From the NCBI GenBank assembly GCA_900768815.1, contig CAAGEE010000002.1, forward strand, positions 176,468 through 240,467: a DNA stretch of 64,000 bases, written 5' to 3'. Both the position numbers and the translations under genes were made by a program. The notes beneath the pieces are model-generated. The model saw only the letters and a list, made by a program, of their open reading frames with translations, did not search any database and had not been told where the DNA came from. This document shows, in pieces, positions 51,735 to 61,588 of the stretch. Each line of letters begins with the position of its first letter. The first letter of the stretch is position 1. Source of the stretch: Bacilli bacterium. Lineage in GTDB: Bacteria; Bacillota_I; Bacilli_A; RF39; UBA660.

Positions 51735-51765
51735 CCAATTTATTTGTCTAGCAAATGTCTTTGGA
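51735..51765 (-). promoter_or_regulatory. Promoter with a 19-nt spacer and embedded dyad, copy 2 of 4
   Basis: On the minus strand it reads TTTACA-aacttCCAAAgacaTTTGc-TAGACA. Confidence 0.45.
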
Positions 51766-51804
51766 AGTTTGTAAAAGTTATTTGGCAGTTAGTAAAGAAA
51801 TTAT

Positions 51805-54270
51805 TTATTCTACGTTTTTTAAGGAAGAGACCATATTGATCTTTTTTAGGTTATAATGAGTTACTATATTTACGATGATTGTAAAAATAATAGTCATTAA
51901 AGCTGATAAGATGTAGCTAATTGTGTCAACTCTCCTATCAAATAATAAATAGTCTGGTTCACAAGTTGAAATAATATAATGACATAAGTATGAACCGGAT
52001 AGTAGACCTAGTGTAATACCAATAGCAGTTAGAATAATAGTTTCTCTAGTTATATATCTATCAACTTCACGAGGATAAAAGCCTAGAACTTTTAGAGTAG
52101 CAATTTCCCTTTTTCTTTCACTTATATTAATATTAGATAAATTATATAAAACAACAAAAGCTAGTAAGGCTGCTGCAACTATTAAAATGGCAACTATTGA
52201 GCCAATTGATCCGATTATATCGTTCATAGTATTTTTCATATCGATGTTATTTACAATAGAAGTTATTTCACTTTTACTAATGTATCCTTCATCAAAATTA
52301 TTTTTTTCTTTGGCGCTTACATTATTTAATTTTACAAGATAAGAATTTGTTTTATAGTTGCCAAAGATCTTTTCATAAGTTGTTTTTGATAAATATAAAT
52401 ATTGGTTTATGTAGTTCTTGACGATTTTGTCAACTTTTACTTGGTGTTTTTTATTGTTATCATCTAAGATTGTTATTTTATCTCCTACTTTGATGTTTAG
52501 TAGTCTAGATGTTTTTTCACTGATTATACAAGTGTTATCTTTAGGAGTAAGATTTTCTTTTTTATTGTCACTTACGTCTATTAGATTGATAACTTTTTTC
52601 AATTCTTTGCTTACCTCTGGAACGATTATAGTTACTTCTTGTTCTTTTTTATTATAAGAGATAGTAACAGTATTAATATTTGTTTCAACTACTTCTTTAA
52701 CGATAGGGTTGTTTAGTAGTTCATTTTTTAAAGTACTTGTATTTGCTGTTTCACTTAGCATTAGCATTTTATCGTATTTAAAAATATTAGTAAATTGAAA
52801 ATTATTAATACCTTTTATGGAGTCTCTTAGACCAAACCCAGTTAATATTAGAGCTGTACAACCAGTAATACCAATTATGGTAGTTAGAACTCTACTTTTA
52901 TATCGAAAGATATTTCTGATGGTTATTTTACTAGAAAATTTTAATCTTTTCCAAATAAAAGTTATGTGTTCTAGAAGAATCTTTTTACCTGTTTTAGGTG
53001 CTTTAGGACGCATTAGATTAGCTGGTACATCTTTTAAGTTTTTAATACAAACAAAGATTGCCGTACCACAGATACAAATAATACAAATTAATAGTCCAAT
53101 TATATTAGCTGATGTATCAATATCACAAATAAATTTTGGAATGGTAAACATAGTTTTGTAGGCATTCCAAACAACTCTTGGGATAAGTAATGAACCCATA
53201 ACTATGCCTAAGAAACCTCCTATTACAGTTGCAAACAAGGAATAAATTATGTATTTTGATGTTATTTGGAAATTGTTAAAACCAAGTGACTTTAGAGTAC
53301 CATTTTCAGTTCTATCTTCTTCAATCATGCGCATCATAGAAATTAGACTTACTAAAATAGCGATACAGAAGAAAATTATAGGGAAAACATTACCTATTTG
53401 TTTTAGATTTTCACTACCGTTGATAAGTTCTTTGTAAGAATTATTGTCTGTTCTATCAAAGATATACCACTTAGGATTTGTAAGAGCTGTTTTGTCTAGA
53501 GGTATGTTGTATGTTTCTGCTTGTTTGATAATGTCACCATATAGTTCATCATACCTAGCAGTTTCTCTATCTTTTTTTATTTTTTCAATATTAGTGGTTG
53601 CTTTTTCAATACTCTTTTTATACTCTTTACTGTTAGTTATTTTGTCTTTAGCGCCTTTTATGGTTAGATAGACATTGGTATAAACATCTTGTTTTATATT
53701 ATTTTCATTTAAGTATATAAGATAATTTACTTTACCATTTCCAAGTGTAGCACTTGGTCTTTCATTACTAAAATATAGTGGACTTATCATAGTACCAACT
53801 ATTTTATAGTTATTATTCTCGATGTTGATGCTGTCATTTATCTTTAGTTTATTATCTTCTAGTAAGGCTTTTTCTACTACTATTTCATTATTGTTACTTG
53901 GTAGTCTTCCTTCTTCTAGATAGACGTTATTTATTTCTTTGTTTAGACCAATTAGTTTTAAAACATACTGTTTATTGTTAAGATTTAAGTAAGCATCTTT
54001 AGAGTATGTTCCAACTACTTTTTCAATATTTTTGACTTTTGATAGTTCTTTGACATCTTCTTTGGTCAAGCCTAAGTTAGAGACAACTTCGATGTCATAA
54101 ACATTATTTTCATCATAGAAGTTATCAAGTGTTTTAATCATGTCCGGACTAGCCGCTTGAATTCCAGCATAAAAACCTACTCCGAGTAAAGCCATGCAAA
54201 GTAGTGATAAAAATCTTTTATAGTTATCTTTTATTTTCATAAAGATGTGTTTTAATAATTTATTTTTCAT
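51805..54270 (-). CDS. FtsX-family ABC permease of the MacB type, with a duplicated FtsX module
   Basis: The ORF is 821 aa with two four-TM bundles, each preceded by a large extracytoplasmic domain. It overlaps the upstream ATPase gene. Confidence 0.7.
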   Translation of the reverse strand: MKNKLLKHIFMKIKDNYKRFLSLLCMALLGVGFYAGIQAASPDMIKTLDNFYDENNVYDIEVVSNLGLTKEDVKELSKVKNIEKVVGTYSKDAYLNLNNKQYVLKLIGLNKEINNVYLEEGRLPSNNNEIVVEKALLEDNKLKINDSINIENNNYKIVGTMISPLYFSNERPSATLGNGKVNYLIYLNENNIKQDVYTNVYLTIKGAKDKITNSKEYKKSIEKATTNIEKIKKDRETARYDELYGDIIKQAETYNIPLDKTALTNPKWYIFDRTDNNSYKELINGSENLKQIGNVFPIIFFCIAILVSLISMMRMIEEDRTENGTLKSLGFNNFQITSKYIIYSLFATVIGGFLGIVMGSLLIPRVVWNAYKTMFTIPKFICDIDTSANIIGLLICIICICGTAIFVCIKNLKDVPANLMRPKAPKTGKKILLEHITFIWKRLKFSSKITIRNIFRYKSRVLTTIIGITGCTALILTGFGLRDSIKGINNFQFTNIFKYDKMLMLSETANTSTLKNELLNNPIVKEVVETNINTVTISYNKKEQEVTIIVPEVSKELKKVINLIDVSDNKKENLTPKDNTCIISEKTSRLLNIKVGDKITILDDNNKKHQVKVDKIVKNYINQYLYLSKTTYEKIFGNYKTNSYLVKLNNVSAKEKNNFDEGYISKSEITSIVNNIDMKNTMNDIIGSIGSIVAILIVAAALLAFVVLYNLSNINISERKREIATLKVLGFYPREVDRYITRETIILTAIGITLGLLSGSYLCHYIISTCEPDYLLFDRRVDTISYILSALMTIIFTIIVNIVTHYNLKKINMVSSLKNVE

Positions 54271-54271
54271 A

Positions 54272-54982
54272 TTACCACTCGATTTCTTCTATGTCTTTTG
54301 GTTTTTTATTGATAATAACATCTGCAGTTGCTCCATTTTTAAATTTAATAATTTTATCGGCCATAGGACTAATTGCAGAATTATGAGTAATAATAACGAC
54401 TGTCATATTTTCTTTACGACAAGTGTCTTGTAGTAGTTTTAGGATTTGTTTACCTGTTTTATAATCTAGTGCTCCAGTTGGCTCATCACAAAGAAGTATT
54501 TTAGGATTTTTAGAGATGGCTCTAGCAATCGCTACACGTTGTTGTTCACCACCAGATAGTTGAGCAGGAAAGTTACTTTTTCTATTTTCTAGACCAACAT
54601 TATCTAGAATTTTATTTGGATCTAGATGATCTTTACATAACTGAACGGCAAGTTCGACATTTTCTAAGACTGTCATATTTTGAATTAGATTATAGAATTG
54701 GAAGACAAAACCTATATCATTACGACGATACTTAGTTAACTCTTTTTCATTTAATTTATTTATAATCTTACCGTCTACAATTACTTCACCGGATGTTAGA
54801 CGATCCATTCCTCCTAGAATATTTAAACAAGTAGTTTTACCGGCACCAGAAGGGCCTAAAATGCAGACTAGTTCTCCCTTTTCTATTTCAAACGAAGTAT
54901 TATTTAAAGCATTTATTTCAACTTCACCCATTTTATAAATTTTATTAACATTTTTAAACTCAATATATGCCAATACTATCAT
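54272..54982 (-). CDS. ABC transporter ATP-binding protein (MacB-type partner)
   Basis: It has [18 protein letters not shown] and [11 protein letters not shown]. The true start may be the TTG 9 nt inside, which is better spaced from the SD aaggag. Confidence 0.8.
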
Positions 54983-60891: not shown

Positions 60892-60950
60892 TTATTAAAC
60901 CCCTCACTACAAATTAATTTTTTCTAACTAATTACTAAATTGTAATTTGA

Positions 60951-61535
60951 TTAGCAATGACCTTCGTTATCTTCAAAATATGATTCAATATATTTTACTA
61001 AAATTTTAGCTTTATTAAATTGTTTATCTTTAACAACATTTATAATATAATCACTACCACTTGCATCAATAATATTATCATCTTTATCATATTCTATTAG
61101 ATAAGTATACTTTTTACCATTAAGTTGGCATTTAAGAAGAACAGTTTGATTTTCTTTTATAGTCATAGAGTCTTTTTTTGCACCAAACATAATATTTATG
61201 AAAATAGTAACAGCAAAGCCAACAATAAAAATTATTCCCAAGACTTTTAGTATCTTAATTATTATCTCTGCATTTTTTTCGGTATTATTTACTTTTTCTA
61301 CTAATACTTGTTTAATGTCATTATTTAATAATTCATCAATACTAACATTAAGTGCTTTAGATAATAATTTTAACTGATCCGGATTTGGGGAAGTTTCGCC
61401 AAGCTCCCAATTTGATATTGTTTGTCTAGTAACATCAACTTTTTCTGCTAATTGTTCTTGTGAAAGTTTGCAATCTTTTCTTAGTTTGAAAATATTATTT
61501 CCTAACTTCATTATTTTTCCTCCTTTCACTAACAA
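60951..61535 (-). CDS. Membrane-anchored XRE-family HTH regulator of 194 aa, a paralogue of 55255..55833
   Basis: The HTH LRKDCKLSQEQLAEKVDVTRQTISNWE is followed by one TM and a C-terminal domain alignable with the paralogue, including both Cys. Confidence 0.65.
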   Translation of the reverse strand: MLVKGGKIMKLGNNIFKLRKDCKLSQEQLAEKVDVTRQTISNWELGETSPNPDQLKLLSKALNVSIDELLNNDIKQVLVEKVNNTEKNAEIIIKILKVLGIIFIVGFAVTIFINIMFGAKKDSMTIKENQTVLLKCQLNGKKYTYLIEYDKDDNIIDASGSDYIINVVKDKQFNKAKILVKYIESYFEDNEGHC

Positions 61536-61557
61536 TTATATATGAGTTGATATTTGT

Positions 61558-61588
61558 ATTCTACCAAATGTCTTTGGAAGTTTGTCAA
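61558..61588 (-). promoter_or_regulatory. Promoter with a 19-nt spacer and embedded dyad, copy 4 of 4 and the best-preserved
   Basis: On the minus strand it reads TTGACA-aacttCCAAAgacaTTTGG-TAGAAT. About 40 nt of UTR with SD aaggagg follow. Confidence 0.5.

Follow-up and report, generated by a model that had tools for sequence, protein, structure and literature searches.

A window of 64,000 nucleotides from a Bacilli bacterium of the UBA660 lineage (assembly GCA_900768815.1, contig CAAGEE010000002.1, positions 176,468 to 240,467) was analysed for a sequence repeated upstream of genes for XRE-type regulators with predicted transmembrane (TM) segments. Each copy was found to consist of two 18 bp boxes, A and B, in front of a predicted sigma-A-type promoter, and the comparative data suggest that the boxes are probably operators for the proteins encoded downstream. 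All sites and genes are on the minus strand unless stated. The gene at 60951..61511 encodes a 186 aa protein with a helix-turn-helix (HTH) domain at residues 1-63, a TM helix at ~78-100 and an ectodomain of ~65 aa. The product of a second gene, 55255..55827, is 190 aa long and 47% identical to the first; both small proteins have one TM helix and a C-terminal domain of ~65 aa with two invariant cysteines. A third gene, 22282..23892, encodes an XRE HTH protein of 536 aa whose body is multi-TM and whose C-terminal region is rich in Cys; homologues are found at loci L044 and L067. The fourth copy stands before a 61 aa open reading frame (ORF), 51513..51698, in which an XRE-like N-terminal MNINEKILLLRKK alone is retained, and a 194 aa TM protein is encoded by the next gene (50891..51475). 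A preliminary description of this DNA had counted four XRE regulators, each with an HTH, a TM helix and a small two-cysteine domain. An HTH was confirmed in three of them (Pfam HTH_3, tblastn) but is absent from the 61 aa ORF, and the complete arrangement holds for the two small proteins and not for the multi-TM 536 aa protein. The small genes likely start at ATG 61511 and ATG 55827, since homologues are 186 aa long and begin with MKLG and the spacing from the ribosome-binding site (RBS) fits; the starts assigned earlier, 61535 and 55833, probably lie too far 5'.

The AlphaFold2 model of the 186 aa protein (pLDDT, the predicted local distance difference test score, 81) comprised the HTH at 1-63, a long helix at 67-110 and a beta-beta-beta-alpha-alpha domain. 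The HTH is a five-helix Cro/C1-type domain, as in the XRE/Cro-C1 family (HTH_3), and its nearest relative was the P22 c2 repressor. The hydrophobic segment ~78-100 lies within helix 67-110, and the protein is therefore by prediction a transmembrane regulator, with the DNA-binding domain and the membrane segment in one chain. NCBIfam returned just generic XRE subfamily matches below the cut-off and no named family. The ectodomain modelled alone gave a pLDDT of 90.5, and a Foldseek search with this model returned no significant match. This domain is rare, with 40 clusters at 50% identity among 1.8 billion representatives. A homologue search with the regulator retrieved 2037 proteins at E <=1e-5, and the parts behind the HTH were varied, with one TM helix and an ectodomain, two TM helices, three to four as in BcrR, or none. 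Judged from these sequences, the combination of HTH and repeated module is widespread, unlike the ectodomain.

The four copies known from the preliminary description were found at 61588..61558 (TTGACA-aacTTCCAAAGACATTTGG-TAGAAT), 55902..55872 (TTGCGA-aagTTCCACTGATTATTGG-TAGAGT), 23968..23938 (TTTACA-aatTTCCAATCAAAGTTGG-TAGAAA) and 51775..51745 (TTTACA-aacTTCCAAAGACATTTGC-TAGACA), each with 19 nt between the hexamers. The pattern TTCCA-N7-TTGGTAGA had four matches in the window (three exact, one with a single mismatch) against 0.10 expected from dinucleotide shuffles, and none of 100 shuffled windows contained four matches with up to one mismatch. When the four upstream regions were aligned, likeness was confined to the motif block and the surroundings of the RBS. 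Because the flanks are unrelated, the block is a conserved island and not a recent segmental duplication. The fourth site and the promoter of gene 60951..61511 have 21 bases identical. A position weight matrix (PWM) of 66 columns, trained on loci that leave out close relatives of the window, recovered the four sites and located a fifth at 37865..37930; box B at 61562..61579 had a PWM score of 27.9 bits against at most 18.9 in shuffles. The four sites are thus real, but the earlier list lacked the upstream box, the downstream -10 and the fifth site (box B at 37892..37909). In such AT-rich DNA, searching 50.5-62.1 kb for consensus promoters and terminators was of no help, with 84 promoter-like sites against 78.6 expected. 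An RNA element in the leader was also considered; no Rfam family was matched at gathering score in the whole 64 kb and both proposed starts are downstream of the dyad, and this candidate was rejected.

The preliminary description had taken TTGACA and TAGAAT as the -35 and -10 of a MerR-type promoter, in which functional hexamers are separated by 19-20 bp and a regulator bound to the dyad between them twists the DNA. All four window sites do show this resemblance, with promoter-like hexamers 19 nt apart and a dyad between, and TGgTAGAAT resembles an extended -10. To assign the hexamers by comparison, 80 loci from species-representative genomes, found through the protein, were combined with the four window regions to give 84 upstream regions. 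These loci came mainly from metagenome-assembled genomes of uncultured gut 'Bacilli' and 'Tenericutes', with some Clostridia, Lachnospiraceae, Oscillospiraceae, a Streptococcus and Collinsella. TTG[GAC]TAGA was matched at seven or more of its eight positions in 69 of the 84 regions, usually 53-58 nt 5' of the ATG. A -10 matrix scored at every offset around this anchor found a -10-like hexamer at +27 from T1 of TTGGTAGA in 55% and at +28 in a further 9% of loci (~64% together), as against 0-3% at nearly all other offsets and a good score at TAGAnn itself in 25%. The information profile of 57 non-redundant promoters resolved five blocks at fixed distances, TG.TAA, TTG[C/A], TTCCA, TTGRTAGA and TAnnAT. 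In the last block T, A, A and T were present in 47, 48, 38 and 47 promoters respectively, and the bases of TAGA were T-35 in 54, A-34 in 54, G-33 in 54 and A-32 in 50. By contrast, the hexamer formerly read as the -35 is variable, being GGGCGR, TTGCGC or TAGCAG in subfamilies, and in the whole GGGCGR subfamily it cannot serve as a -35.

Because the conserved -10 is found 27 nt 3' of T1 of TTGGTAGA, TAGAnn is most likely a weak -35 (T-A-G-A in place of T-T-G-A) with a normal 17 nt spacer, and not a -10. The former -35 corresponds, on the alignment, to the right half of box A, and the 19 nt distance follows from two 18 bp boxes standing 3 bp apart. No MerR-family protein was linked to the motif in the evidence gathered, in which MerR genes outside the window were not sought, and the linked protein is of the XRE family. 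With the conserved -10 elsewhere, as judged comparatively, a promoter twisted in the manner of MerR is extremely unlikely here.

On transcription starts placed 7 nt after the -10, box B (TTCCAA-N6-TTGGTA) would occupy -51..-34, centred at -42.5 and sharing 2 bp with the -35, and box A (TGTTAA-N6-TTGACA and variants) would occupy -72..-55, centred at -63.5. The two centres are therefore 21 bp apart, with box A two helical turns 5' of box B. At gene 60951..61511, box A is TGTTAA-AAGTCT-TTGACA (61583..61600), its TG.TAA and TTG[CA] blocks being those found at a fixed distance in the 57 loci, and box B is TTCCAA-AGACAT-TTGGTA (61562..61579). The -35 TAGAAT (61558..61563), assigned by its conservation in the same loci, is followed after 17 nt by the proposed -10 TATAAT (61535..61540). 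The other sites were assigned by motif and PWM. Gene 55255..55827 is preceded by box A TGTTAA-GAATAA-TTGCGA (55897..55914), box B TTCCAC-TGATTA-TTGGTA (55876..55893) and a core promoter at 55849..55877, with TAGAGT (55877..55872), a 17 nt spacer and a TG-extended -10, TGaTATATT (TATATT at 55854..55849). At gene 22282..23892, box A is a GCAAC-type variant, TGCAAC-CCAAAG-TTTACA (23963..23980), box B is TTCCAA-TCAAAG-TTGGTA (23942..23959), and in the core promoter (23915..23943) TAGAAA is separated from TACTAT by a 17 nt spacer starting GCAACCA. The fourth module (51723..51787) has an A-like box, TGCCAA-ATAACT-TTTACA (51787..51770), box B TTCCAA-AGACAT-TTGCTA (51766..51749), and TAGACA followed after 16 nt by a TG-extended -10, TGaTATACT (TATACT at 51728..51723). 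In the fifth (37865..37930), the A-like box is TGTAAA-GTAAAC-TTATAA (37930..37913) and box B is TTCCAA-TTAAAC-TTGCTT (37909..37892); a -35 TTGTAT, the 17 nt spacer GCAACCAAATAAATACA and the -10 TATAAT (37870..37865) are followed by an RBS and ATG 37837. Transcription is predicted to start at ~61528, 55842, 23908, 51716 and 37858.

One subfamily (L044, L067, L082, L098, L157, L184, L185 and L197) has in addition a conserved (A/T)GCAAC(C) directly after the -35. In the window this element is present at 23931..23937, as AGCAAC in the promoter of gene 22282..23892, and at 37881..37887 in the fifth module, where it opens a box-A-like TGCAAC-CAAATA-AATACA at -30..-13. It may represent a third, repressive operator in this subfamily.

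The association of module and XRE gene was assessed from the DNA side by scanning metagenome contigs for TTCCA-N7-TTGGTAGA-N19-TAnnnT, with protein information unused. The scan gave at least 121 matches, and among the 121 listed an XRE HTH gene was directly downstream on the same strand in 60, starting ~20-25 nt after the -10; several further listed matches ended at contig edges. Within the same list, box A was present in all 60 XRE-linked matches and in none of the obvious chance matches, and 46 of 47 distinct downstream proteins had the recognition helix [STA]RQ[TSA][IV]S.WE. In ~450 kb flanking the protein-first loci, 51 of the 54 PWM matches of 20 bits or more preceded an XRE gene. Both scans, of metagenome contigs and of flanking DNA, associate the motif with XRE genes and support the view taken in the preliminary description of the sites as the signature of a co-regulated family tied to XRE-type membrane regulators. 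The module was distributed from uncultured gut Bacilli to Clostridia and Streptococcus. One locus, L183, has both small window genes at 100% identity and is, on this identity, the same genome or a near-identical one. Two module-bearing XRE genes were observed within ~15 kb or less of each other at L008, L040, L057, L062, L172 and L183, which indicates a locally expanded paralogue family in those genomes.

Box A varied with the protein. TGTTA[AT]-N6-GGGCGR was found with 15 of 15 ARQTISKWE proteins and with none of 39 TRQTI proteins, while SRQ[SA]V multi-TM proteins had GCAAC-N6-GTTG[CA]. In these sequences the variation fits self-recognition and could also reflect common descent. Gene neighbourhoods, inspected for hints of a function or of a distinct regulator, were not conserved among the homologous loci. 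As HTH and module are constant partners while neighbourhoods and C-termini vary, autoregulation is the parsimonious reading. Of the two possibilities raised in the preliminary description, control by the regulators themselves through the dyad or by a MerR-like factor encoded outside the window, the comparative data favour the former and lend no support to the latter.

The fifth module is the sole one in the window with a target other than a regulator, and its PWM score was 25.5 bits against at most 15.0 in shuffles. It precedes two genes for fused ABC ATPase/FtsX-type permease proteins (33159..37837; Pfam ABC_tran and FtsX), a MacB-type operon, which is a candidate non-XRE target on the strength of the matching sequence. 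Its box B and its GCAACC after the -35 resemble those in the promoter of the 536 aa regulator, and for this reason that protein is the best candidate regulator of the ABC operon. Full modules elsewhere preceded an ABC ATPase with two permeases (L197), a secreted protein (L192), a membrane protein followed by an XRE gene (L097) and a hydrolase-like gene (L072).

The fourth site has probably been kept as a target promoter after decay of the gene for its regulator. Similar decayed XRE copies were located behind intact modules at L120 and L147, and these suggest capture of the promoter after loss of the regulator gene. The 194 aa TM protein 50891..51475 showed no homology to the ectodomains of other family members. 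The genes after decayed copies were observed to be unrelated, a TM protein in the window and a pilin-like gene at L120.

These data favour a family-wide module of two roughly palindromic boxes upstream of a sigma-A-type promoter, probably bound by dimers of the XRE protein encoded downstream and autoregulatory, with a positive sign preferred. Dimers of the transmembrane regulators would bind boxes A and B of their own promoter and, the boxes being two turns apart on one face, would occupy them cooperatively. The bound regulators would then control their own promoter and a few further targets, such as ABC-transporter operon 33159..37837, and the dimer at box B would activate by a class II contact with sigma region 4. 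Fold (an HTH like those of P22 c2, 434 and lambda cI), operator size, tandem spacing and the position near -42 would by analogy reproduce the lambda OR1/OR2-PRM arrangement. As at PRM, and on the inferred start, an operator near -42 overlaps a weak -35 and a second one lies upstream on the same face. In a BLASTP alignment with what we take to be the N-terminal sequence of lambda cI, LSQEQLAEKV is paired with LSQESVADKM, so that E19 and E23 fall at cI E34 and D38, although SQE.LAEK is widespread in XRE proteins. The E34/D38 patch of cI contacts sigma region 4 at PRM (PMC1874639). The analogy has bounds: in contrast to the lambda, 434 and P22 repressors, the window protein is membrane-anchored and without a C-terminal oligomerisation or cleavage domain, there is neither a phage immunity region nor a divergent PR-type promoter here, and activation is proposed by analogy.

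The sign of regulation is nearly balanced. Many XRE-family regulators are repressors, and it is possible, if somewhat doubtful, that the XRE proteins of this family, bound to box B (and A), shut down their own promoters through occlusion of the -35 or DNA looping. The overlap of box B with the -35 and the further box-A-like element between -35 and -10 in the GCAAC subfamily would suit such autorepression. Against it, the overlap is of 2 bp only and both boxes lie upstream of -34, a geometry with which lambda cI and RNA polymerase can occupy PRM at the same time (PMC1874639). The -35 is also systematically sub-consensus because the operator fixes A at -34, there is no consistent TG extension, as expected of an activator-dependent promoter, and the operator-to-promoter register is invariant across distant lineages. 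On these points activation is plausible and slightly preferred to repression. Another arrangement would place a weak extended -10 promoter (P1, e.g. 61558..61566) ahead of the downstream promoter (P2), with the regulator at box B shutting P1 and helping P2. TGGTAGAAT at 61566..61558 fits TGnTAnnnT, so that TGgTAGAAT of gene 60951..61511 could be a minor extended -10 promoter, and the TAGAnn offset scores well as a -10 in about one locus in four. The feature is not family-wide (of 57 promoters, 29 have T in the last position and 27 have G at -36) and cannot explain the module, and tandem promoters as the general arrangement are unlikely.

Box B is nearly identical before paralogues with different C-terminal domains, which makes cross-binding among paralogues likely and would also be expected if the protein on the boxes were a distinct master regulator common to all copies, or a paralogue acting solely in trans. 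Binding by such a protein in place of the one encoded downstream is quite unlikely given that no neighbouring gene is conserved, that in very different taxa the module is always accompanied by an XRE gene of the RQ-helix type, and that box A differs by subfamily. Several points nevertheless weigh against autoregulation with a positive sign. The protein-first loci were picked by the peptides RQTIS[NK]WE and SQE[QE]LAEK and the motif-first loci by box B, so that each set conditions on one partner; common ancestry rather than recognition could account for the way box A varies with subfamily, and box A of the GGGCG subfamily is not palindromic. Symmetric covariation in box B, considered as proof of dimer binding, was marginal (odds 4.7, p 0.054) and was set aside. 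Autorepression would be served just as well by an operator that overlaps the -35. The acidic patch is weak evidence, since SQE.LAEK occurs in many XRE proteins, pure repressors among them, and where TGg precedes TAGAAT this element could work as an extended -10 promoter.

Autoregulation through the two boxes may be extended to a fuller scheme, which as a whole we consider unlikely. The module would be a lambda-like multi-operator switch run from the membrane, in which the shared box B allows cross-regulation or heterodimers and box A sets specificity, and the third box between -35 and -10 of the GCAAC subfamily would act like OR3. The small ectodomain, disulfide-stabilised and SEAL-like, would control whether the HTH is released or active, for example by regulated intramembrane proteolysis. 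Such a one-component envelope-sensing network would replace two-component systems in gut Bacilli with reduced genomes and control MacB-type exporters. The resemblance of the modelled ectodomain to SEAL domains, which are SEA-like and juxtamembrane in RsgI, is a lead only. SEAL autoproteolysis is defined by a scissile Asn-Pro hairpin (PMC10556640), which is absent here, the hairpin being LNGKKY, LNNEKY or IDKKQY (NGKK, NNEK or DKKQ between beta1 and beta2 in the alignment). The window proteins also differ from RsgI, an anti-sigma-I factor, in having no ectodomain behind the SEAL-like domain and an HTH rather than an anti-sigma domain in the cytoplasmic part.

Among characterised membrane regulators, BcrR of Enterococcus faecalis offered a close comparison. 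BcrR is a membrane-bound XRE-type bacitracin sensor that activates bcrABD and is annotated as the transcriptional activator of an ABC transporter; like the window proteins it joins an N-terminal Cro/C1-type HTH to a membrane anchor, and both are tied to ABC transporters (here at the fifth site and L197). Relatives with three or four predicted TM helices (L043, L049, L060-62) show a distant likeness to BcrR, with 31% identity over 76% for L049, and have the same TTGATAGA box as the family. However, BcrR, with a length of about 200 aa, has four TM helices, no ectodomain and the recognition helix SRTAISKWE, whereas the window proteins have one TM helix and an ectodomain or the 536 aa multi-TM form, and identity between them is confined to the HTH. 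The PbcrA region (L081) contained no box B/TAGA module. As topology and recognition helix differ and PbcrA lacks the module, the idea that BcrR is a direct homologue sharing the operator was rejected.

Some features of the surrounding DNA were also recorded. A hairpin with a U-run is located at 55207..55255, right after the stop of gene 55255..55827 (-10.7 kcal/mol, z -3.5); with this terminator-like hairpin directly 3', the gene is probably monocistronic. The ABC genes behind it (51805..54982) had no PWM match above background in front of them and probably have their own promoter without the module. A desulfoferrodoxin-family gene (Pfam PF01880; 61620..62000) lies immediately upstream of regulator 60951..61511, as does a homologue (~91-93% identity) at L001, L002 and L004, and a similar-looking ORF was seen at L120. 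A Fic/DOC-domain protein of 400 aa with the motif HPFFDINGRTSR is encoded at 48312..49514. Gene 49644..50456, among the very few plus-strand genes in an otherwise minus-strand stretch, encodes a protein whose Asn/Gln-rich low-complexity N-terminus leads into a TM segment and then a small domain.

To our knowledge, almost no HTH-type transmembrane regulators have been studied besides BcrR. Transmembrane transcription regulators (TTRs), including ToxR, CadC, BcrR and BreG, are a recognised and widespread class with a DNA-binding domain and a TM segment in one polypeptide, as in the window proteins; HTH is their commonest DNA-binding domain, and HTH-type members are reported as the commonest membrane-bound one-component regulators (PMC10269533). 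The earlier statement that no described system has such a combination was in this respect overstated, since transmembrane XRE/HTH regulators are known and widespread (PMC10269533; BcrR). For the HTH_3 type, neither a cis-element nor a promoter architecture is given in the TTR survey (PMC10269533), and a literature search of partial coverage, which turned up a general TTR survey and BcrR papers alone, gave no description of the operator-promoter module. The window regulators belong to the known TTR class and not to the BcrR family, and what is newly described is the cis-element and the corrected promoter assignment.

The comparison also carries a caution, that a constant 19 nt spacing of promoter-like hexamers can arise from two adjacent operators alone. 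The module provides a position-fixed operator-promoter handle on a large uncharacterised regulator family, with concrete predictions of transcription starts, operators and at least one target operon, the MacB-type ABC transporter, and the PWM is usable for predicting regulons of XRE transmembrane regulators in metagenome-assembled genomes. The MerR-like claim fails, and its place is taken by a regulatory architecture that is shared across the family, can be tested and belongs to gut bacteria which have received little study.

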